Positions 40,042 through 54,609 of a DNA stretch of 64,000 nucleotides are shown one piece after another. The position numbers and the translations under genes were made by a program. How positions within the stretch are numbered: position 1 is the stretch's first letter; every line of letters starts with the position of its first letter. Below the pieces are notes generated by a model. It did no database searches. It was not told the DNA's origin and was given only the letters and a program-made list of their open reading frames with translations. This DNA is from Eubacteriales bacterium (lineage in GTDB: Bacteria; Bacillota; Clostridia; Oscillospirales; CAG-272), in the NCBI GenBank assembly GCA_051868045.1, contig JBJDZN010000041.1, positions 13,087 through 77,086 on the forward strand, given 5' to 3'.

Positions 40042-40156
40042 CGAAATGCCCTCTCAATCCCAAGAATTTACGATTTCCCTTTATTTTAGCATATTTTCGT
40101 CGGATTGTCAAGACAGCCGCAACATCTTTTCAGGGCGAAAAAACGCCGCCAACGGC

Positions 40157-40185
40157 TTGACAAATTCTTCCGGATTAGGTATAAT
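40157..40185 (+). promoter_or_regulatory. sigma-70-like promoter candidate
   Basis: TTGACA at 40157-40162, 17-nt spacer, TATAAT at 40180-40185. Confidence 0.5.
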
Positions 40186-40248
40186 AGATTCAGATGTCAG
40201 AAGTCGTTCAGGAAAACGCCAAAATCAGAATTACCAAGGAGGACAACC

Positions 40249-41517
40249 ATGAAAGTCCAAAACATCCTCTCCCTTCTTTTATCCCTGACCCTCTCCCTGC
40301 CCCTGCTCGCCGGATGCAATACAGAGACACCGGCAAACAGCAGTGACACCGGCACGGATGTCGGCATTGGCACCGGAACGGATACCGCCACCGGTATTCC
40401 CACGGACACCTTCAGCACCACCGTCTCTGCCACCATCCCATCGGAATCGCCAACCGAACCGGAGGTACCCGGGAACCAGTGGAAGACCGTCTGTGCCGGA
40501 CAATCCTGCTATGCCGCCATTACCGGGGACGGCTCCCTCTATATGTGGGGCATAAATACCAACGGGCAACTGGGCAACGGTACGAAGGAGGACAGTCCTG
40601 TTCCCGTCAAAATCATGGACAATGTGCAATCGGTCAGTCTGGGCAGTATGCACAGTGCCGCCGTTACCGAAAGCGGAGATCTCTACCTATGGGGAAGCAA
40701 CATCTACGGACAACTGGGGACCGTTGAAAATAAATCCAGCTTAACGCCGATCAGGATTATGAGAAACGTAGCCTCCGTCTGCCTCTCAGAGACCCGCAGT
40801 GCCGCCATCACCACCGACGGTGAACTCTATCTGTGGGGGAAGAACCCCAACGGAGAGATCGGAACCGGTACAGCAGAGGACAGTCCCGTTCCCGTCAAAA
40901 TCATGGACAACGTACAATCGGTCAGCCTTGGCTACATGCACACTGCGGCGATCACCACCGACGGCTCGCTTTATCTGTGGGGTGACAACGCCGAAGGGGA
41001 ACTCGGAACCGGGAACCGGAAGTCCAGTATGACGCCGGTCAAGGTCATGGACAACGTGCAATCGGTCAGCCTCGGTTTTTTGCACAGTGCGGCGATCACC
41101 AAGGACGGCAAACTCTATCTGTGGGGAAGCAACTGCGCCGGACAGATCGGATGCGGGCTCAGCGAGGATCCGACTGAAGCCTTCCTGTCCCCTGTCAAAA
41201 TCATGGACAATGTGCAATCGGTCAGCACCGGCTTCGATTTCACTGCCGCCGTCACGAAAAGCGGCATCCTCTACCTATGGGGATGGAACAAATACGGTCA
41301 GTTGGGCAACGGAAAAACGGCAGACAGCGGTACGCCTGTCAAAATCATGAGCAAGGTTGCCTCTGTCAGTCTCTGCAATTTAAACAGTGCCGCCATCACC
41401 ACCGACGGTGAGCTCTACCTTTGGGGGTTGAACAGCCACGGACAGTTGGGCGACGGCACAACGGAGAACAGCTCTACCCCCGTCAAACTCGCTCCCCCCG
41501 AATCGGGCGAAGACTGA
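40249..41517 (+). CDS. RCC1/BLIP-II repeat lipoprotein (seven-bladed propeller)
   Basis: AAGGAGGA RBS and lipobox LLAGCN. Seven repeats of the YLWGxNxxGQLGxG...PVKIMDNVQSVS type. Confidence 0.85.
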   Translation: MKVQNILSLLLSLTLSLPLLAGCNTETPANSSDTGTDVGIGTGTDTATGIPTDTFSTTVSATIPSESPTEPEVPGNQWKTVCAGQSCYAAITGDGSLYMWGINTNGQLGNGTKEDSPVPVKIMDNVQSVSLGSMHSAAVTESGDLYLWGSNIYGQLGTVENKSSLTPIRIMRNVASVCLSETRSAAITTDGELYLWGKNPNGEIGTGTAEDSPVPVKIMDNVQSVSLGYMHTAAITTDGSLYLWGDNAEGELGTGNRKSSMTPVKVMDNVQSVSLGFLHSAAITKDGKLYLWGSNCAGQIGCGLSEDPTEAFLSPVKIMDNVQSVSTGFDFTAAVTKSGILYLWGWNKYGQLGNGKTADSGTPVKIMSKVASVSLCNLNSAAITTDGELYLWGLNSHGQLGDGTTENSSTPVKLAPPESGED

Positions 41518-45358: not shown

Positions 45359-45512
45359 GCACAGGCGGCAGATGCTCCCCGCCGACAAAGGGAGTCTCCT
45401 CCCAAAGATTTGACCCTTTGGGGTAAAAACCTCCGTCCACCTGCAAACCTCCCTCAAAAAGGGCGGCAATATTCCCATTTATCATCAAACCCATCTTCAG
45501 AAAACAACCTTT

Positions 45513-45557
45513 GAGGCTGCAGCAAAAACGACAATTTTTGCTGCAGCCTCATTTTTG
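45513..45557. terminator. strong bidirectional terminator between the kinase gene and the transglutaminase cluster
   Basis: GAGGCTGCAGCAAAAA cgacaa TTTTTGCTGCAGCCTC followed by ATTTTTG. Confidence 0.8.
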
Positions 45558-45583: not shown

Positions 45584-48500
45584 TTATCGGTGCTTCTTAC
45601 GGTTCCGTTTTCTCAGAATCCCCGCCGCAAGCAGCGACGCACCGATCAGGACGCCCAGCGACACCCACAGGATGACGGGAACCGGATGCTCGGTCTTTTC
45701 CGTCACTCTGATGGGATACGGATAGGATGCCGCCTCGTATTCGGGTACGCCATCCCCGTTAAGGTCCCACGGGTCGCAGTTCATGACCAGAATCGCAGAC
45801 CCCGTCCGGATTCCGTAAAGGCGGCTGCCCTCCAGCCGAACGGTTCCGTTTGCGTCACTGAGCCGATAGCTTGCCGGAAATGCCGCAATCCCATCCGACC
45901 ATGCCACATCGGTCAGTTCCAGTTTTCCGTCAACCGGGACGGTCAGCGTCCGTCTGGCAAGGGGAAGGGGAGCAGGTGTGACGGTCAGTATGCCCGAATA
46001 AACGGTGAGGCTGTACAGCCGGGTCACATCCTTGCCCTGGGCATCCAGCACAACCAGACTGCCGCAGACGTTTTCCGTGCTTCCCGCATAAAGCTGATAG
46101 CTGCCCGACTTTATCACAATCTGATCTCCCTCCCTGAGGGCTCCCGACAGCAGTCGGAAATCCTGACAGGTCAGGGGCGTTCCGTCGTATCCGGCACTTG
46201 CATCCCCCATGGTGAGGCTGACGGCAATATATTCGTTTCCGTCGGGTCCCGTCACCAGAATCGGCTCAAATATGCCTGCATTCTCAACCTCGCCGGCAGA
46301 AAGGGCTTCGTCGCCGTTTTTGTCCACTACCGTGACGCTGGGGAAGGACTCGATTTCAAGTCTGAGGGTTGCCTTTCCCTCCGGAATGGTGTCCTCGTCA
46401 ACGTCAAACTCGTAGAGGATGCTTCCCTTTGATGCCATAAAGGTGTGAATCCGTTCGGGGTCTTCACTGTCAGGCTTTGCTCCCGTACAGTTGATACGGA
46501 CGATGGGCGTTACGCCAAACAGAACCTCCGGCATGTCTTCGGTCATCAGCTCCGAAATCGCCGGCAGCGTCAGGTCCGTCCCAAGATACACCTTGACCTC
46601 ATCGGGATTTATCTTGATCTCAATGGGATTCACCGTCAGCGTTCCGTCCAGGACGATCAGGTCGTACTCGTCGGTCACATCTCTGCCGGAACTGTCGTGA
46701 ATTTCAAGAATTTCGAAGTAAGAGGAAGAACATCCGGCGAAAAGCTGACTTCCGCCGACTTTTGCTATGATATAGTCGCCCTCCCGAAGGGATCCGGTAA
46801 GAATCTCATAGCCATCTGCAATCAGGGGCGAGCCGTCATAGTCCTTCTCCCCGGAATTCGGTACCACAACCAGAGCATCGCCCTGCGTAATATAGCCGTC
46901 TCCGGTGACTTCCACGGGAATCCAACCGAAGCTGTCCAGATAGATTTCCACCCATGCGTGAGCATTCAGGGCATTGAAGGCGGTCATCCTGCCGCCCTCG
47001 GCATCCACCATGAAGCCTCCCACCAAGCGGGCGGGAATCCCCAGCGTCCGATACATCAGCACCGCCGCCGAGGCGAAATGGATGCAGACCCCCTCCCGAC
47101 TCTCAGTCAGGAAGTAGATCACGGGATCCACCCCGTCCGGGCAGGACTCGTAGAACAGATTGTAGGATGCGCAGCCACGGATATAGTCACGGACTGCCGG
47201 AATCATGGCAGCCGGATCGGTGTCCTCTGCGAGCTTATACCGGGAGGCAAGTGTCAGCATTTCTGCCCGTATATCGTCGGGAACCGTCAGATAGTTGGCG
47301 TAGACGTAATATTTTTGGTAGTAAGCATCATCCAGCAACACGGAGCCGTCCTGCCGGCACGCCAGAATATCCTCCAGATCGTCTTGAGGCAGGAAGTTCA
47401 CCGAATACCCGACCGCCACATCGTGACTCCAGGGCATATTGCAGTCGTTGGGATAGTCCAAATCAACACCAAGACCGGGAAGAAGGTCGTAGCCGGGATT
47501 GGTGTAAAGTGTGATCGTCCCGGGCAGCACGGGATAATTGTAACTGTTTTTCAGAATATATCCGGCACTTTCCAGAGCACTAAGCTCCGGCATTCCCGGT
47601 ATCAGGTTTTCGGTACACAAATCCGGCATTCCCCATCTGCCGCCGCCCAGATAATCGCCGAAGCTGGTCATACGCAGGTAGTAGGAGCCGCTCTGTTCTG
47701 CCACCAGATTGCCCAGAGGTCCCAGATAGTCGGGAAGTCCGGAGTTCATGGGAATGTCGCCCGACAGATCGCCCAGCCCCGAAATCTGATCCAGTGAGGG
47801 AATTCCCTCGGGCAGAGTGATCGGCAGGTCTCCCGGGTCAGTACCCGGTATGGTACCCGGTGTGGTACCGGGTGTGGTACCCGGTGTGGTACCGGGTGTG
47901 GTCTCAGGAGGAACGTAGTCCGATTCCTTGACGGTCAGGGTTCCGTTTACATAGGTGATGGCGTAATTGGTCGTCACCGCCTCGCCACTCGGGAGATACA
48001 GTCCGAAGGACACCACATTGACCCGGCTGCCCACCTGGGTCTGCTTGGCATAAGACAGTGCCGTGAGAGCGGTATGGGGATCTGCCAGCGTCCCCTCCAG
48101 CAGGACATATCCGGTGGAATACAGGGGCGTTCCGTCGTAGAATTTCTCCGCCGTATCGGTTTGCAGGGTGATCTCCCGTCTCTTCACGGTCAGTTTGCCG
48201 TAGGTTGCCGTGATCTGATAGTTTGCCGTCACATCCTGACCGTCCGGGTCGAGGATGGTGCAGACAAAACTGTTGTCCGCACTGCCGGCATTGGTCAGCT
48301 GACGGAATACCGGCTTCAGCGTGTCCCCCTTAAGCAGGGTTCCGCCTGTCTGGGTATAGTTCTCGCAAACAAGGGGAGTCCCGTCGTACACCTTTTCGGC
48401 AGAGCCGGTGGTAAAGGACAGCTCGATGGGGGTCACTTTCAGTACGCCGCTGGTCTGAACAATCTCATAGCAGGAACTGACATCCATGCCATTGCTGTCC

Positions 48501-49549
48501 TGAACGGAAAAACGGAGAAGATTGGAGACGGTTCCCACATTCACAATGGAGGTGACCCCTTCAATGACCAGCCGATGTCCGTACAGCAGACTGCCGCCCA
48601 AAAGGTCATAGCCCATTTCCGACAGGGCATAGCGGTCGTATTGCTTGGTCGCCGAATGGGTTTGGATTGTCAGCCGTCTTGGCTCCACGGTCAGCGTGCC
48701 GTCCTGAAGGATCAGATCGTACGTTTCGGTCACATCGTTGCCGTCGGAATCGTAGATTCTGCCGGTAATGCTGTTGACGGCAACGCCCGGTTCGGTGATC
48801 ATGCCCTCCACGGTCACGTCCAGACGGTCGCCCTCCCGAAGGGTGCCGGATTCAAGGGTCCATTGGGGATTCTGCAAAAAATTTCCGTCGTAGACCTTGC
48901 TCGCACTTGAAGCCACTACCGTCAGCTTCCGTTTGATCACCGTCAGATAGCCCGACTCCACCGTCAGATTGTAGCAATCGGTCACGTCGGCACCGTTTTG
49001 GTTGACAATACGGAAATTGAGGATCTCCACCGACCGGCTGGTCTGAAGTTCCCCCGTAACCGAAAGTTCCACCCCGTCCAGACGGTCGCCGTCTGCCAGA
49101 TTGGACACGCGGATCCGACTTTCCAGTTCCGATGCCCGGGTGCCGTAATAAAGGGTGGTATCGGGAAAGGTGATCTTGGCATTCCGTCGGCTGATTTCAA
49201 AACTGCTGCCCACCTGCCGCACCGTTCCGAAGGGATTGCGGGTCTCGGCGATCATCTCATAGGAACCGATCTTTTCGGGATAGTCATCCGACCAGTCGTC
49301 ACTGCCCGTTTCGGCAAAACGGTAGTCCGGGAATGCCAGAAAGGCAGTGGCTCCGTAGCTCGGAGTGTCTCCGTATACGGCATTTTCACTGTATGCTCCG
49401 CCGAAAAAGGTACCGGAGTAGAAAAGCAGTACCAGAATTGCCGCCAAAAGCACCAGTGCAAGGATGACGAACACCGGCTTGTGCCGCTTGACGAAGTCGA
49501 TCCGACGGGCAATCTTCCGCATTTTTTCCACATACGCATCATAGGTCAT
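45584..49549 (-). CDS. 1321-aa envelope protein: N-terminal TM, MBG(YDG)-type repeats, PT linker, transglutaminase-like Cys-protease core, more MBG repeats, C-terminal TM
   Basis: TM PVFVILALVLLAAILVLLFY. Repeats of the KVYDGTPL...G.L..GD...DVT.NY.I....G.L.V type. Core EGVCIHFASAAVLMYRTLGIPARLVGGF...NAHAWVEIYLDSFGWIPVEVTG. C-terminal VPVILWVSLGVLIGASLLAAGILRKRNRKKHR. Confidence 0.85.
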   Translation of the reverse strand: MTYDAYVEKMRKIARRIDFVKRHKPVFVILALVLLAAILVLLFYSGTFFGGAYSENAVYGDTPSYGATAFLAFPDYRFAETGSDDWSDDYPEKIGSYEMIAETRNPFGTVRQVGSSFEISRRNAKITFPDTTLYYGTRASELESRIRVSNLADGDRLDGVELSVTGELQTSRSVEILNFRIVNQNGADVTDCYNLTVESGYLTVIKRKLTVVASSASKVYDGNFLQNPQWTLESGTLREGDRLDVTVEGMITEPGVAVNSITGRIYDSDGNDVTETYDLILQDGTLTVEPRRLTIQTHSATKQYDRYALSEMGYDLLGGSLLYGHRLVIEGVTSIVNVGTVSNLLRFSVQDSNGMDVSSCYEIVQTSGVLKVTPIELSFTTGSAEKVYDGTPLVCENYTQTGGTLLKGDTLKPVFRQLTNAGSADNSFVCTILDPDGQDVTANYQITATYGKLTVKRREITLQTDTAEKFYDGTPLYSTGYVLLEGTLADPHTALTALSYAKQTQVGSRVNVVSFGLYLPSGEAVTTNYAITYVNGTLTVKESDYVPPETTPGTTPGTTPGTTPGTIPGTDPGDLPITLPEGIPSLDQISGLGDLSGDIPMNSGLPDYLGPLGNLVAEQSGSYYLRMTSFGDYLGGGRWGMPDLCTENLIPGMPELSALESAGYILKNSYNYPVLPGTITLYTNPGYDLLPGLGVDLDYPNDCNMPWSHDVAVGYSVNFLPQDDLEDILACRQDGSVLLDDAYYQKYYVYANYLTVPDDIRAEMLTLASRYKLAEDTDPAAMIPAVRDYIRGCASYNLFYESCPDGVDPVIYFLTESREGVCIHFASAAVLMYRTLGIPARLVGGFMVDAEGGRMTAFNALNAHAWVEIYLDSFGWIPVEVTGDGYITQGDALVVVPNSGEKDYDGSPLIADGYEILTGSLREGDYIIAKVGGSQLFAGCSSSYFEILEIHDSSGRDVTDEYDLIVLDGTLTVNPIEIKINPDEVKVYLGTDLTLPAISELMTEDMPEVLFGVTPIVRINCTGAKPDSEDPERIHTFMASKGSILYEFDVDEDTIPEGKATLRLEIESFPSVTVVDKNGDEALSAGEVENAGIFEPILVTGPDGNEYIAVSLTMGDASAGYDGTPLTCQDFRLLSGALREGDQIVIKSGSYQLYAGSTENVCGSLVVLDAQGKDVTRLYSLTVYSGILTVTPAPLPLARRTLTVPVDGKLELTDVAWSDGIAAFPASYRLSDANGTVRLEGSRLYGIRTGSAILVMNCDPWDLNGDGVPEYEAASYPYPIRVTEKTEHPVPVILWVSLGVLIGASLLAAGILRKRNRKKHR
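47840..47903. repeat. about five tandem 12-nt units (GGTACCNGGTGT) encoding (TPGT)n
   Basis: Read directly from the sequence. It corresponds to ETTPGTTPGTTPGTTPGTIPGTDPG in the 1321-aa protein. Confidence 0.9.
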
Positions 49550-49598: not shown

Positions 49599-50198
49599 TC
49601 ATTCCTGATCCGAAGCGGACACCATATAGTCTTCCAGATTTTTGACGATGTAGGTTCCGCCGGTTCTTCCGACATCATCTTCCCATTTGATAACGAACAT
49701 CAGGCTGTCGCCGCCCTGAAGGGTCATCTCACCGGGCAGATCCAGATAGCTTTCCTCTTCCCAATCATCGTCCGAACCGTCCTCGGCGGCAAGATAGACG
49801 GTATTTACCGAACGGGTCCCATTGTACTGGGTACAGCTGAGATCGGTGATCCGCAGCTTGCCCGACCCCCGCTTGTAGATTCGAAGGGTATAGCTGACAT
49901 AGCCGTCCCCGCCGTCTGAGGAGGTATACACCTGAAGGTCAAGACAGCGAAGCTCAAAGGAGCTGCTCGTGGTGCTTGTCTCTTCAATTGCGGGCTTGGG
50001 ACGGCTGCTGATCCCTTCGGTATTGACGCTGTACACGGGACTCTGATCGGGAACCGACGGGTCGTCCCAAAACAGTCCGAATACCGCCAGTGTCAGCAGC
50101 AGAATCAGCACCAATGCCAGACTGACGATAGCTGTGGCAAGGATGCGGATTCCGCCGTCCCGGATCACGGTTTTCTTTCTTGGATTTTGTATTTTCAT
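49599..50198 (-). CDS. small bitopic membrane protein with an acidic extracytoplasmic beta-rich domain (no family recognised)
   Basis: MKIQNPRKKTVIRDGG, then TM IRILATAIVSLALVLILLLTLAVFGLF. Its ATG and RBS lie inside the duplicated segment. It ends 49 nt upstream of the transglutaminase gene. Confidence 0.7.
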   Translation of the reverse strand: MKIQNPRKKTVIRDGGIRILATAIVSLALVLILLLTLAVFGLFWDDPSVPDQSPVYSVNTEGISSRPKPAIEETSTTSSSFELRCLDLQVYTSSDGGDGYVSYTLRIYKRGSGKLRITDLSCTQYNGTRSVNTVYLAAEDGSDDDWEEESYLDLPGEMTLQGGDSLMFVIKWEDDVGRTGGTYIVKNLEDYMVSASDQE

Positions 50199-51345
50199 CT
50201 GTTATCCTGCCTTTCGGGAAGGTTGCCCGACTTCTGTGTCGGTCGATTTTTCAATGGAGGAATTTGCCAAGGGTGCGTCTGCACAGGGGAAGTCCGTCCT
50301 CCCCGAAGAGGTTGTCCAGACAATCCTCCAGCCCCTTTGCCTCGGTGCGCACATAAACCGGATTCTGATTTTCCAGCTTCCGCAGTACCTTCCGGGCGAT
50401 GATCTGATCCACACCGTCCATCTCCCTGCCTCCGCAGGCGAGATAAACCGGGATAAAGCCCTCGATCTGGCTCATAATCCGGTTCCCGAAGGTGATGCCC
50501 AGATGTCCGATCAGATAGGCATCCAGTGCCTCGATCTTCTCCCGCACCTCTTCGCTGAGCCGATATTTCACCCTTGCCTCACGGAACAGCCTGTCCAGCT
50601 GATTTCCCGTCAGACTCACGCCCTCGGCACTCCCGGAGGCGGAAAAGGGCTTCGCCCGGCGATCCAGATCCAGCACCATGGCACGGTCGTAGACCTTGTC
50701 CGAGATGGCGAGGGTCGAATCGTCGTTGTTTGCCGTTCCCACGAACCAGACCGTGTCGGGAATGTGGAGCTTGCCGTTCTTCAGCCGTTTGGGATCGTCC
50801 GAACGGCTGTCGGACACGATCTCAACGGTGCGGCTCTGACTGTCGGGTAGTTCCAGAACCGACAGAAATTCGGCAAAATAATATTCCACACGGGCGATGT
50901 TCATCTCGTCCAGCACGGCGACATAGACTCTGTCGTTGGTTCCCGCCTCGTACAGCTTCTGGAGCAGTTCGGTCTCATGGAAGGTGCCGGTGAACTCGTT
51001 GAAATAGCCCAGCAGATCGGTTCTGTCCTTCCAGGAAGGCTGAACGGGAACCATCACGGCATCGTTGCCCATGAATTTTCCGAAGGCATACGCCAGCGAG
51101 GTTTTTCCGGTGCCGGAAATGCCCTGCATAATGATCAGCTTGGTCACCGACATCCCGGCGACGAAGGATCGGATCACGTCGGCATCGTAGTACAGTCCCA
51201 TCTGTCCGGCGGCGAAATTCCGGAAACGGGTGCAAAGCTCGGACAGGGTCAGATTGGGGTCCCCCTTGGGGGTCTGCACCGTCTGACGGTCGGTCTGACA
51301 CAGCCGATAAAACCGGGGTTCCTCTTCCGCCCCCTTGGCGGAACC
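50195..51345. repeat. direct repeat copy A (1151 bp) covering the AAA+ core, stop codon, 52-nt spacer, RBS and ATG of the next gene
   Basis: It aligns to 53264-54414 at a constant offset of 3069. By eye there are no mismatches over 50195-51177 and about eight mismatches in 51178-51345. Confidence 0.9.
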
Positions 51346-51708
51346 TTTCCACGACAGATTTTTTCGGGAGGACGTCCGAAAGCGGAGGGCGATCAGGAAG
51401 AGAATCAGAAGAATGAAGAGAATCAGAAAGCCCAATGCCAGAATCAGCACGATGGATTTGGGAAGTGAGAGCAGCTGGCTCCATCCCTCGCTGTCCTCCT
51501 CGGTGGTATGAACCGTCAGCGAGAGAATCAGCAGAATCCCCAAAATCAGCACGGGAATCAAAAACCATGCCGCAAGGGAGGGTCGGTTGTCCTTTTTATC
51601 TTTTTTCATATGGGTTGTCAATGCCTTTCTCCAATCCGTTGGAATAATATCGTTCGAATAGGTTATTTCCGACAATAATTGGGGGGATTTCACAAAAGGG
51701 AGTCGCAT
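50251..51708 (-). CDS. membrane-anchored McrB-family AAA+ GTPase, paralog 2 (two predicted TM helices)
   Basis: Walker A GISGTGKTS. VQPSWKDRTDLLGYF. Walker B-plus VAVLDEMNIARVEYYFAEFLSVLE. VWFVGTANNDDST (NxxD). TM helices AAWFLIPVLILGILLILSL and IVLILALGFLILFILLILFLIAL. Start is ATG 51708 (preferred, see findings) or ATG 51609; the GTG at 51810 is rejected. Confidence 0.8.
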   Translation of the reverse strand: MRLPFVKSPQLLSEITYSNDIIPTDWRKALTTHMKKDKKDNRPSLAAWFLIPVLILGILLILSLTVHTTEEDSEGWSQLLSLPKSIVLILALGFLILFILLILFLIALRFRTSSRKNLSWKGSAKGAEEEPRFYRLCQTDRQTVQTPKGDPNLTLSELCTRFRNFAAGQMGLYYDADVIRSFVAGMSVTKLIIMQGISGTGKTSLAYAFGKFMGNDAVMVPVQPSWKDRTDLLGYFNEFTGTFHETELLQKLYEAGTNDRVYVAVLDEMNIARVEYYFAEFLSVLELPDSQSRTVEIVSDSRSDDPKRLKNGKLHIPDTVWFVGTANNDDSTLAISDKVYDRAMVLDLDRRAKPFSASGSAEGVSLTGNQLDRLFREARVKYRLSEEVREKIEALDAYLIGHLGITFGNRIMSQIEGFIPVYLACGGREMDGVDQIIARKVLRKLENQNPVYVRTEAKGLEDCLDNLFGEDGLPLCRRTLGKFLH

Positions 51709-51722
51709 ACCTGATTTCCGAT

Positions 51723-53267
51723 TCAGCCCTGTCCGTCCCCGTTTTCTGCCGTTTTCTTGCCCTTTTTGAACAGTTCCTCCTTGCGGATTCGCTGTTTCGC
51801 CAGTCTCCACTGATGCTTGTAGTACTTCTCAAAGGCAAAATACTCCCGCTCCAGTCTCAGAAACCGTTCCCTTGTGGTGTAATCGGTTTCTTCTTCCTTT
51901 TCACCGGCAAGCAGGCGACAGCCTCTGAGCTGTCCGACAAGCAAAGCCCGTTCCTGCTCCCAAACCTCTTCCCTTTCGGAAAGTTCCTTTTCGTGGAGCC
52001 GATCCCGCTCCAACAGTGCCTTTTCCGAGCGGATAACCTCATCGGAAAGCATCTTTTCGCCCTGCTTCATCGCCGCACGGACATCCTGCTCCAGCGAATC
52101 CATCCGCCGAAGCTGCTCCTCTGCGCGGACCTTTGCCTCATCAAGCCGACTCTCTGCCTCTGCATTCTGCCGTTCCGATTCTGTCAGCCGATCGGACAAA
52201 TCCCGATTAGCCAAAAGAACCCTTTCAAGACGGTCTTCCAGCAGTGCAATGTACTCCTTGTCGGACAGCTTCTCCCGTCCTGCCGCAATCTCCTGCCGGA
52301 CCTCCTCATGATACCGAATCTCTTCCTCTTTCAGAAGCTCCTCCAATTGGGGTACCCTGTCGCAAGCCAGATCGGAAAAGACCAGACGTAGCATTTCTCC
52401 GATCTCGCTCAGCATTTCCCGATCCCTTTGGGGCAGTTCCTTTCTGCTCTCCTCCCGACTTTCTACCCGATAGCCGGTGCCCCGGTAGGCATGAAGATAG
52501 GAGTACAGCTCGTATGCCGCCGCAAAATGGCGGTTGCTCCGCAGAACGTTGGTCTGAACCACCGGAGGACGAAGCAGAGGGGCTTTCGCCACCTCTTGCA
52601 TCAGATCGGTGGCAAGCAGGGTTTCGATCTGGGCAAGAATTTCGGACAGGCGTTTGGTAGGCGATGTCGGATCGGTTCCCCGTGCGGTACGGGTATCGGT
52701 CATCCGATTCTGCCAGAGAAGTTCGCTGTCCCGGTCGCTGACCCCCATGCTGCTGCACAGTTCCAGCATCCTGCCCTCGCTGACTCCTGCCATTTCACGG
52801 TATTTCAGGGAAACAAAGTCCTTGATGTAAAGAAACAGGGCGTAAAGAAAGCGATTTTCATAGACGGCGTAGTTTTCGGAATTTTCAATGATGTAGATCT
52901 CCTCGGGAACCAGACGTTCCTCGTCATCGGGATGGGGTTTGAGCAGTTCCGAGTGACCCGCCAGATGGCGCACCGATTCCTTGGTGGGATGCTTGGCGCG
53001 GTCAATGCGTACCACGTCCCCCTCCTTATTGATCTGACTGCGCTGCTGCTCCACCGCTTTAACCAGATGGGGCATGGCGTTCTCGATCTGCTCGATCCAG
53101 TCGTCGCACAGCTCGCACTGCTGACTGCGGAAGGTCAGTTCAAAGGGGGTCTCGCCGACCTCGGTAAACGCCGGTTTTCCCTTGCTCCGCTCCCTGCAAA
53201 GGCTTCGGAGAACCCGATAATATTTCAGATCACGGGAGTTATCATTTTTTTCGTTTGTTAGGCTCAT
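51723..53267 (-). CDS. McrC-like N-terminal region fused to a long coiled coil; no nuclease motif seen
   Basis: The ENYAVYENRFLYALFLYIKDF block resembles the YENRF signature of McrC/DUF2357 N-domains (from memory). Residues ~290-470 are heptad-like and E/R/L/K-rich. I find no PD-(D/E)xK or HNH pattern. Confidence 0.7.
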   Translation of the reverse strand: MSLTNEKNDNSRDLKYYRVLRSLCRERSKGKPAFTEVGETPFELTFRSQQCELCDDWIEQIENAMPHLVKAVEQQRSQINKEGDVVRIDRAKHPTKESVRHLAGHSELLKPHPDDEERLVPEEIYIIENSENYAVYENRFLYALFLYIKDFVSLKYREMAGVSEGRMLELCSSMGVSDRDSELLWQNRMTDTRTARGTDPTSPTKRLSEILAQIETLLATDLMQEVAKAPLLRPPVVQTNVLRSNRHFAAAYELYSYLHAYRGTGYRVESREESRKELPQRDREMLSEIGEMLRLVFSDLACDRVPQLEELLKEEEIRYHEEVRQEIAAGREKLSDKEYIALLEDRLERVLLANRDLSDRLTESERQNAEAESRLDEAKVRAEEQLRRMDSLEQDVRAAMKQGEKMLSDEVIRSEKALLERDRLHEKELSEREEVWEQERALLVGQLRGCRLLAGEKEEETDYTTRERFLRLEREYFAFEKYYKHQWRLAKQRIRKEELFKKGKKTAENGDGQG

Positions 53268-54414
53268 CTGTTATCCTGCCTTTCGGGAAGGTTGCCCGAC
53301 TTCTGTGTCGGTCGATTTTTCAATGGAGGAATTTGCCAAGGGTGCGTCTGCACAGGGGAAGTCCGTCCTCCCCGAAGAGGTTGTCCAGACAATCCTCCAG
53401 CCCCTTTGCCTCGGTGCGCACATAAACCGGATTCTGATTTTCCAGCTTCCGCAGTACCTTCCGGGCGATGATCTGATCCACACCGTCCATCTCCCTGCCT
53501 CCGCAGGCGAGATAAACCGGGATAAAGCCCTCGATCTGGCTCATAATCCGGTTCCCGAAGGTGATGCCCAGATGTCCGATCAGATAGGCATCCAGTGCCT
53601 CGATCTTCTCCCGCACCTCTTCGCTGAGCCGATATTTCACCCTTGCCTCACGGAACAGCCTGTCCAGCTGATTTCCCGTCAGACTCACGCCCTCGGCACT
53701 CCCGGAGGCGGAAAAGGGCTTCGCCCGGCGATCCAGATCCAGCACCATGGCACGGTCGTAGACCTTGTCCGAGATGGCGAGGGTCGAATCGTCGTTGTTT
53801 GCCGTTCCCACGAACCAGACCGTGTCGGGAATGTGGAGCTTGCCGTTCTTCAGCCGTTTGGGATCGTCCGAACGGCTGTCGGACACGATCTCAACGGTGC
53901 GGCTCTGACTGTCGGGTAGTTCCAGAACCGACAGAAATTCGGCAAAATAATATTCCACACGGGCGATGTTCATCTCGTCCAGCACGGCGACATAGACTCT
54001 GTCGTTGGTTCCCGCCTCGTACAGCTTCTGGAGCAGTTCGGTCTCATGGAAGGTGCCGGTGAACTCGTTGAAATAGCCCAGCAGATCGGTTCTGTCCTTC
54101 CAGGAAGGCTGAACGGGAACCATCACGGCATCGTTGCCCATGAATTTTCCGAAGGCATACGCCAGCGAGGTTTTTCCGGTGCCGGAAATGCCCTGCATAA
54201 TGATCAGCTTGGTCACCGACATCCCGGCGACGAAGGATCGGATCACATCGGCATCGTAGTACAGTCCCATCTGTCCGGCGGCAAAATTCCGAAAACGGGT
54301 GCAAAGCTCGGACAGGGTCAGATCGGGATCCGCCTTGGGGGTCTGCACCGTCTGACGGTCGGTCTGACACAGCCGATAGAACCGGGGTTCCTCTTCCGCC
54401 CCCTTGGCGGAACC
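53264..54414. repeat. direct repeat copy B (1151 bp)
   Basis: See copy A. Confidence 0.9.
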
Positions 54415-54609
54415 GCCGCTTTTGGCGCCGACCGTCTGCACCTGATGAAACCGCAGGGTCAGGAGGACGACGAAAAGGATCAGCAGGAGAAGAAGGGCGA
54501 TCATGTACAGAAAGACAGCGGTGTGTCCGGTCAGTGCCGACCAGATTCCGGAATTCCGGATACTTTGCAGAAAATCCGAATTGTCAAGGGAAAGAGCGGG
54601 AATAACCAT
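53320..54609 (-). CDS. membrane-anchored McrB-family AAA+ GTPase, paralog 1 (one predicted TM helix)
   Basis: Same AAA+ core as paralog 2, with an identical C-terminal ~325 aa. N-terminal MVIPALSLDNSDFLQSIRNSGIWSALTGHT, then TM AVFLYMIALLLLLILFVVLLTL. AAAGG RBS 9 nt upstream. Confidence 0.85.
   Translation of the reverse strand: MVIPALSLDNSDFLQSIRNSGIWSALTGHTAVFLYMIALLLLLILFVVLLTLRFHQVQTVGAKSGGSAKGAEEEPRFYRLCQTDRQTVQTPKADPDLTLSELCTRFRNFAAGQMGLYYDADVIRSFVAGMSVTKLIIMQGISGTGKTSLAYAFGKFMGNDAVMVPVQPSWKDRTDLLGYFNEFTGTFHETELLQKLYEAGTNDRVYVAVLDEMNIARVEYYFAEFLSVLELPDSQSRTVEIVSDSRSDDPKRLKNGKLHIPDTVWFVGTANNDDSTLAISDKVYDRAMVLDLDRRAKPFSASGSAEGVSLTGNQLDRLFREARVKYRLSEEVREKIEALDAYLIGHLGITFGNRIMSQIEGFIPVYLACGGREMDGVDQIIARKVLRKLENQNPVYVRTEAKGLEDCLDNLFGEDGLPLCRRTLGKFLH

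Follow-up and report, generated by a model that had tools for sequence, protein, structure and literature searches.

What does a McrC-like protein do without a nuclease? McrBC is the classic example of a restriction enzyme that depends on GTP, and systems related to it are assumed to serve defence by targeting nucleic acids. The question is raised by gene C, located on the minus strand of a 64,000-nucleotide stretch of contig JBJDZN010000041.1 from an Eubacteriales bacterium (hereafter the window), where it is the second of five genes named B1, C, B2, S and TG. The analysis reported here indicates that the product of C is very probably a nuclease-less DUF2357 partner of the two GTPases encoded on either side of it by B1 and B2. 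The complete proposal, in which C is the McrC-equivalent subunit of a McrBC-derived, membrane-anchored and nuclease-less GTPase complex with an output at the cell envelope, is favored with more moderate confidence.

Domain layout of C and the search for a nuclease

The open reading frame of C extends from 53267 to 51723, starts with ATG and encodes 514 amino acids (aa), with AGGA located 7-10 nt 5' of the start codon. No hydrophobic or transmembrane (TM) segment was found in the protein, whose layout is as follows:

51723..53267, minus strand: gene C, 514 aa; DUF2357-type N-domain, helical rod and conserved C-terminal helix, from the open reading frame, Pfam and AlphaFold
52428..53267, minus strand: N-domain of C, residues 1-280; helical bundle with beta elements (AlphaFold2 pLDDT 81; Pfam PF09823 through the family consensus)
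52845..52862, minus strand: YENRFL motif, residues 136-141; the most conserved block of the family
51888..52427, minus strand: rod of C, residues 281-460; variable, E/R/L-rich and alpha-helical, from composition, AlphaFold2 and family-level periodicity
51741..51872, minus strand: C-terminal basic/aromatic helix, residues 466-509, with the motif W487-x2-A-K491-x2-I494-R495

An earlier interpretation made from the letters alone (the sequence-only reading) had placed an open reading frame at 51723-53267 and noticed in it a YENRF block, a long stretch rich in E, R, L and K, and a basic tail. All of these are present: residues 128-151 read ENSENYAVYENRFLYALFLYIKDF, and the basic tail reads KKGKKTAENGDGQG / ...ELFKKGKKTAENGDGQG.

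The affiliation of the N-domain was examined with PF09823 (DUF2357, the McrC N-domain family), a profile of length 251 with a gathering cut-off of 23.3 bits, and with two alignments of the family of C, one of 23 full-length members (A1) and one of 58 N-domain sequences (A2). By itself, C scores 18.3 bits (E = 0.0014), under the cut-off. The family behaves differently, since 14 of the 23 full-length members match DUF2357 (best E = 2.7e-7) and the hmmemit consensus of A2 reaches 31.5 bits (E = 1.3e-7) over profile positions 64-214. Distant homologues, which match the N-terminal 45% of C at E = 1e-10 to 1e-17, score 36-42 bits against the same profile, with P0035, P0040, P0064 and others at 39-42 bits. 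The McrC/DUF2357 likeness put forward in the sequence-only reading is thus upheld by profile comparison at the family level, where the N-domain is of the DUF2357/McrC-N type, and is marginal for the single sequence.

This domain is also the conserved part of the protein. The YENRFL block is invariant in all full-length members (23/23, A1), and Y136, E137, N138 and F140, like P121, F151, T239 and N240, are invariant in 58/58 sequences of A2. Used alone as query, the N-domain recovered 1107 cluster representatives (50% identity) at E <= 1e-3, including 209 at E <= 1e-30; C is a member of a large unannotated Clostridia family. The AlphaFold model of the N-domain has a pLDDT of 81.2 when predicted separately (77.6 for full-length C) and consists of helices with a long beta-hairpin at residues 165-194. 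The DUF2357-like domain also contains an S-V-x-H-L-A-x-H-S block at residues ~97-106 (window 52953-52979), which fits neither the HNH nor the HEPN pattern and whose H101 and H105 are conserved at 91-96%.

C has no nuclease. Past residue 280 only helices are modelled (280-302, 305-333, 336-453 and 466-509), and the strings resembling D...(D/E)xK are confined to a variable helix (356-379), where 4-30% of relatives conserve them. C was found to have neither a GIY-YIG nor a PLD pattern, and its single HNH-like string and two Rx4-6H strings all fall within the N-domain (residues 67-105), none in any C-terminal domain. The conserved charged and histidine residues are E62, R76, K92, H101, H105, E128, E137, R139 and R206 in the N-domain, and R331, E344, R466, E473, E475, K491 and R495 in the helical part; no nuclease-type triad could be recognized among them. 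Likewise, no nuclease Pfam domain was detected in C, nor in the 23 family members and 30 further homologues (53 scanned), the latter including the longest members found (738-1333 aa), and no nuclease appears among the listed Foldseek matches of the two C models in the PDB. The sequence-only reading, which had seen no nuclease pattern and had called for a search of a predicted structure for a cryptic fold, is in agreement with these results.

What follows the N-domain is an amphipathic helical rod. Glutamate accounts for 21% of residues 280-460 (~nt 51888-52430), arginine for 13%, leucine for 15.5% and lysine for 5%, and proline occurs once; the stretch includes an unbroken helix, 336-453, predicted with a pLDDT of ~85-92. 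The description of this stretch as heptad-like holds for the family and only weakly for C itself. Indeed, a Fourier test of the whole rod at period 3.5 does not rise above shuffled sequences (p = 0.36), and in windows the values for C are z = 0.9 (period 3.5), 1.9 (3.6) and 2.5 (3.67), against mean values of z = 3.6-4.5 for 31 family members, the control periods 3.0 and 4.2 remaining near -0.5. Profile matches of the rod in the PDB are marginal and limited to ApoA-I, the myosin rod and NDC80. The spacing is heptad/hendecad-like, and the term coiled coil is plausible for C.

The sequence of the rod is poorly conserved and its length is kept. In most of the closest relatives, which are only 30-35% identical, 253-259 residues separate the PPxxxTN and W motifs; in a second group the distance is 319-390. 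Conservation returns in the last helix, where R466, F469, L472, E473, W487, K491, I494 and R495 are each at least 90% conserved; its W..AK..IR motif is confined to the transglutaminase-type subfamily (P0001-P0031).

Two membrane-anchored GTPases and a surface transglutaminase-like protein

The gene order B1-C-B2-S-TG constitutes an operon, all on the minus strand, with intergenic gaps of 52, 14, 52 and 49 nt. Its remaining features are the following:

53320..54609, minus strand: B1, 429-aa McrB-like GTPase with one N-terminal TM segment (residues 32-50)
50251..51708, minus strand: B2, 485-aa McrB-like GTPase with two N-terminal TM segments
49599..50198, minus strand: S, 199 aa, with a single TM segment at the N-terminus and a domain predicted to be extracytoplasmic
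45584..49549, minus strand: TG, 1321 aa, with TM anchors at the N- and C-terminus, MBG/YDG-type repeats and a transglutaminase- or cysteine-protease-like core
45512..45551, minus strand: terminator-like hairpin with an 18-bp stem, 33 nt past the TG stop and the probable end of the operon
53264..54415, minus strand: upstream copy of a direct repeat, comprising the B1 GTPase domain and the 52-nt leader, ribosome-binding site (RBS) and ATG of C
50195..51346, minus strand: downstream copy of the repeat, comprising the B2 GTPase domain and the leader, RBS and ATG of S

The start of B2 was taken as the ATG at 51708, 14 nt past the C stop; the mechanical open reading frame begins with a GTG at 51810 and overlaps C. 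The best match of B1 and B2 among solved structures is E. coli McrB (6hz4, E = 1e-5), both are matched by the NCBIfam McrB model, and the Walker A (GISGTGKT), Walker B (VLDEMN) and signature (ANNDDS, compared with MNTADRS) motifs of B1 align with those of E. coli McrB. The sequence-only reading had cast C as the partner of an McrB-like protein, and the two GTPase genes lying 52 and 14 nt away bear this out. It had missed that there are two such GTPases, both membrane-anchored, and that the operon ends in a surface transglutaminase-like protein; these properties shift the system away from nucleic-acid restriction. No nucleic-acid-binding specificity domain was found at the N-termini of B1 and B2, which carry one and two TM helices with short tails, and no nuclease, HEPN or other known toxin domain in the five operon proteins. 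The PADLOC model PDC-M26A matches the GTPases (E = 5e-44), the best stretch covering positions 312-436 out of 724 in the model; no paper on PDC-M26 was found by literature search. C is matched by neither PADLOC nor NCBIfam, and PADLOC gave nothing meaningful for its homologues or consensus. The operon is flanked in the window by housekeeping genes (aconitase, ClpB, ProRS and a two-component system).

TG is identified by its Pfam matches to Transglut_core (E = 5e-22), YDG and MBG_2 and by the core motifs GVCIHFA ... HAWVEIY ... PVEVTG. Its TM segments and triad-like motifs are kept in the related loci L001 and L003 (loci of relatives are given L numbers, and their proteins P numbers). In the core (window 46700-47449, residues ~820-880), the cysteine of GVCIHFA and the histidine of HAWVEIY are retained. 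PVEVTG, conserved in the window, L001 and L003, occupies the place where an aspartate would presumably be expected as third catalytic residue; this residue may be a glutamate in TG, or be located elsewhere. S has no Pfam match, and its position is conserved in L001, L003 and other loci.

The arrangement is not peculiar to the window. Among the 36 loci with enough flanking sequence on both sides, the B1-C-B2 sandwich is found in 34, and a transglutaminase core lies downstream of B2 in 30 of the 34 loci with at least 4.5 kb available there; one exception, L083, keeps an MBG/YDG surface protein that is devoid of this core. The complete five-gene set was found in one relative at 80% identity and in another at 35%. 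Relatives of C were detected by pattern scan in at least 374 of 185,579 species genomes, and a search of 72,556 plasmids and 50,697 phages yielded no homologue. Among the 80 loci that the scan returned, almost all bear Clostridia-type titles and originate from gut or rumen metagenome-assembled genomes (MAGs) of Eubacteriales, Oscillospiraceae, Christensenellaceae and Ruminococcus, with a single isolate, Pumilibacter muris (strain CLA-AA-M08, locus L084). The system appears to be present more than once in some genomes: the MAG JAZUSJ01 contains, on two contigs, two different C homologues (L036 and L080) that are 32% and 28% identical to C.

In a subset of loci (L083:3097-6435, L007:5525-8659), B1 is preceded by a gene whose product, ~1050-1110 aa long, has Glyco_hydro_3_C and Fn3-like domains. 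The same type of gene occurs in L033, L039, L042, L056, L060, L067, L073, L076, L081 and L086, and is absent from the window. A stretch 20-25% identical to the GTPase domain was seen in this gene in L083 and the ten loci just named, L007 being excepted; judged by this resemblance, a divergent McrB-like module, the third of these loci, would there be fused to a region resembling glycosidases.

The GTPase genes of the window share a repeat. A base-by-base comparison revealed a direct repeat of 1152 nt at an offset of 3069, of which 983 nt are perfect; the 7 mismatches are all at one end, within 51178-51346. The GTPase domains of B1 and B2 are identical at 362 of 364 residues, and the leaders of C and S, both inside the repeat, are identical as well. 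Over the 36 loci, the nucleotide identity of B1 and B2 across ~1.1 kb is at least 95% in 14, 88-94% in 3 and ~70% in 19. This bimodal distribution points to recurrent gene conversion of the GTPase domains, the N-terminal membrane modules of B1 and B2 staying distinct and each conserved. Such homogenized motors attached to distinct membrane modules constitute a natural experiment on interchangeable parts. An assembly artefact was considered as the origin of the B1/B2 duplication and rejected on account of the distinct conserved membrane modules, the recurrence of the sandwich and the copies that are only ~70% identical.

Many public contigs carrying C are only 2-3.5 kb long and end on both sides in partial GTPase genes (L023, L025, L027, L029-L032, L034-L036 and others). 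The near-identical repeats probably break short-read assemblies and explain these contigs, and the C family is probably under-represented or fragmented in MAGs, a practical warning to be kept in mind when short-read data are searched near C.

Relation to CoCoPALM and other McrBC systems

McrBC systems were surveyed by Bell et al. (2024, eLife, PMC11090510), who noted that DUF2357 domains often contain coiled-coil insertions and that, within the coiled-coil clade, homologues of McrC "often lack the PD-(D/E)xK endonuclease entirely". The suggestion of the sequence-only reading that a nuclease-less coiled-coil McrC would be a new architecture has thus to be withdrawn, such homologues being already part of this survey, including those of its CoCoPALM clade. 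The latter was described as combining a TM/FtsB-like GTPase with signal-peptidase genes, both subunits having coiled coils, and was deferred to a later paper (PMC11090510), which the literature search did not find. Nuclease-less CoCoNuT McrC homologues were reported to be "always" accompanied by another nuclease gene, and the whole clade was treated as restriction-related (Bell et al. 2024, PMC11090510). A literature search combining McrB/McrC with transglutaminase returned no paper linking them and one irrelevant match; those supplements of Bell et al. 2024 that were searched mention neither transglutaminase nor CoCoPALM.

A second type of locus, here termed S26-type, helps to place the window operon. 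These loci contain a DUF2357 coiled-coil homologue of C (for instance P0040, 677 aa), a TM-plus-coiled-coil GTPase, a pair of S26/SipW-like peptidases, exported proteins of TasA-like type and a protein exceeding 3000 aa, a gene content that matches the description of CoCoPALM. B1 is 52% identical over 263 aa to the GTPase of one of them, L004. The window operon shares with CoCoPALM an McrB-like GTPase with an N-terminal TM segment, a DUF2357 protein with a long coiled-coil-like region and no nuclease, an operon running on into exported or giant surface proteins, and a host among the Bacillota. The GTPase signature (here NNDD) may be of the N-x-D-(D/E) type: the string T-A-N-N-D-D-S agrees with the published description, "NxD followed by a second D", and the ungapped alignment to NTAD of E. 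coli also reads NxxD.

There are also differences. No FtsB-like coiled coil separates the TM segment of B1 or B2 from the GTPase domain, whereas the L004 GTPase has one, and two GTPase paralogues flank C here instead of one. The partner is a transglutaminase-core protein with MBG repeats, accompanied by S, and neither the window nor the transglutaminase-type loci contain a signal-peptidase (S26/SipW) or TasA-like "AWFT" proteins; a tblastn search for S26/SipW-like genes with two proteins matched L004-L006 only, and neither the window nor the transglutaminase-type loci. Conversely, the S26-type proteins do not have the C-terminal W..AK..IR helix of C. A BLASTP comparison of S with the TM/beta-domain protein encoded in the S26-type locus gave no significant support for homology (E = 0.016-0.11). 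The S26-type GTPase was called as two genes, of 427 and 73 aa, in L004 (8396-9964) and also in L005 and L006. The counterpart of the 73-aa piece is the C-terminal end of B1/B2, to which it aligns, and the split could be a frameshift, a sequencing error or genuine. The window operon appears to be a transglutaminase-linked sister of the CoCoPALM systems, and no description of it was found in the searchable literature.

Other comparisons are more distant. CoCoNuT CnuC (for example Type III-A, in which PD-(D/E)xK is lost) is like C a nuclease-less McrC-like subunit with a DUF2357 domain and coiled-coil segments. In CoCoNuT, however, a large coiled coil is carried by a soluble GTPase (CnuB), neither of which applies here, and the operon always includes another nuclease (HEPN etc.) and often a helicase, none of which is present in the window operon. 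E. coli McrC (EcoKMcrBC; 6UT6, 6HZ4-9, 7VSR) is also the partner gene of an McrB-type GTPase, and its block DTLANRIIK resembles YENRFLY of C by eye, which is a reading of two sequences and not the result of an alignment. This 348-aa protein differs by its PD-DxK nuclease and its PF10117 domain, and has no detectable profile or Foldseek similarity to C. Beyond McrBC, MoxR-DUF58-TgpA operons combine an AAA+ ATPase, an adaptor and a membrane transglutaminase, and FtsEX-type systems activate extracellular hydrolases. In both, as in the window operon, a cytoplasmic NTPase is coupled genetically, via membrane-spanning parts, to an extracytoplasmic transglutaminase-like or hydrolase enzyme. The NTPase families (MoxR, ABC) and the adaptors differ and no homology is implied, so that this analogy serves as an illustration only.

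A proposed envelope machine or a defence system

All the operon proteins other than C span the membrane, and the sole catalytic domain that is not a GTPase is extracytoplasmic. This composition points to an output at the cell envelope, a placement held with middling confidence. By analogy with E. coli McrBC, the DUF2357 domain of C would dock on or in a hexameric ring of B1/B2 and stimulate GTP hydrolysis. The rod may stand in for the dimerizing nuclease domain, whether by dimerization, by bridging or by acting as a spacer of constant length, and the conserved C-terminal helix might dock another component or the inner face of the membrane. A machine of this kind would assemble, anchor, activate or remodel the transglutaminase/MBG surface protein, and would not cleave nucleic acids.

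Pushed one step further, and only tentatively, this concept leads to a McrBC motor exapted in gut and rumen Clostridia as a GTP-driven membrane machine, with two TM-GTPases and a nuclease-less McrC "ruler", handling a giant transglutaminase surface protein. Such a machine would be the first case of a McrBC-type system working at the cell envelope and not in defence, forming a sister pair with the SipW/TasA-linked CoCoPALM. If the output is indeed at the envelope, the AAA+ GTPase ring and its McrC "plug" would be redeployable as a trans-membrane motor or switch, and the CoCoPALM clade would gain a second, independent example pointing in the same direction.

Several results weigh against this proposal. 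The envelope output is deduced from gene neighbors, and the match of the GTPases to a "phage defence candidate" (PDC-M26A), together with the patchy distribution of the family, fits a defence role equally well. Taken alone, C is sub-threshold for DUF2357 and its heptad periodicity is weak. Foldseek found no PDB match for the full-length model (best E = 0.67, no McrC), and for the N-domain-only model its best value was E = 0.06, with neither McrC nor a nuclease. A hmmsearch of the A1 and A2 profiles against PDB sequences returned only coiled-coil noise (ApoA-I, myosin, CAF-1) and no McrC, and hhalign between the family N-domain and the single E. coli McrC sequence gave a probability of 0.2%. 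This last miss is expected, and thus uninformative, because E. coli McrC matches PF10117 and not PF09823. As no McrC was found by Foldseek, PDB profile search or hhalign, the docking and stimulation step is drawn from family membership and synteny only. The view of the sequence-only reading that the YENRF block plugs into the McrB ring likewise found no confirmation in the Foldseek and hhalign comparisons.

The most serious competitor, itself rather unlikely, would place the operon in the CoCoNuT/CoCoPALM lineage as an anti-phage or conflict system, in which the GTPases and C would form a sensor or switch, the rod would transmit or gate the signal, and the transglutaminase-like surface protein (or a membrane perturbation) would be the effector or a phage-sensing receptor. 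The McrBC ancestry of B1 and B2 speaks for it, as do the PDC-M26A match (E = 5e-44), the restricted distribution (374/185,579 species genomes, in Clostridia), the two systems within a single MAG (L036 and L080), the fast divergence of the rod, the gene conversion of the paralogues and the treatment of the whole clade as restriction-related by Bell et al. (2024, PMC11090510). Yet the operon encodes no nuclease, HEPN or other known toxin, and the second nuclease gene that "always" stands beside a nuclease-less CoCoNuT McrC (PMC11090510) is missing here. In addition, the flanks are housekeeping genes and not a defence island, the plasmids and phages searched yielded no homologue, and C matches no PADLOC model.

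Compared with both an envelope machine and a defence system, it is very improbable that C is a generic coiled-coil scaffold tethering membrane proteins, functionally unrelated to McrC and with a DUF2357 similarity too remote for docking on a GTPase. The sub-threshold Pfam score of C alone and the lack of any structural or hhalign match to McrC would suit such a scaffold. On the other hand, the family consensus and many homologues exceed the DUF2357 gathering score, the conserved part is the N-domain (matched by 1107 cluster representatives) and not the rod, McrB-like GTPases lie on both sides in 34/36 loci, and a miss against the single sequence of E. coli McrC, a PF10117 protein, is to be expected.

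A cryptic or degenerate nuclease within C, located in the beta-rich region 165-275 or in the SVxHLAxHS block and still allowing the system to cut nucleic acid, is hardly credible: the 91-96% conservation of H101 and H105, accompanied by E62, E128, E137, R76, K92 and R139, and the alpha-beta-beta-alpha-beta order of residues 136-275, loosely like a PD-(D/E)xK core, could recall one, but the PDB matches listed by Foldseek include no nuclease (best E = 0.06), residues 165-280 contain no conserved D or (D/E)xK, and the conserved residues fall in the DUF2357-aligned region and not in a catalytic domain.

Elsewhere in the window, and unrelated to C, an open reading frame on the plus strand (40105-41517) encodes a protein with a lipoprotein-like N-terminus and many RCC1-like repeats (...YLWG.N..GQLG...).

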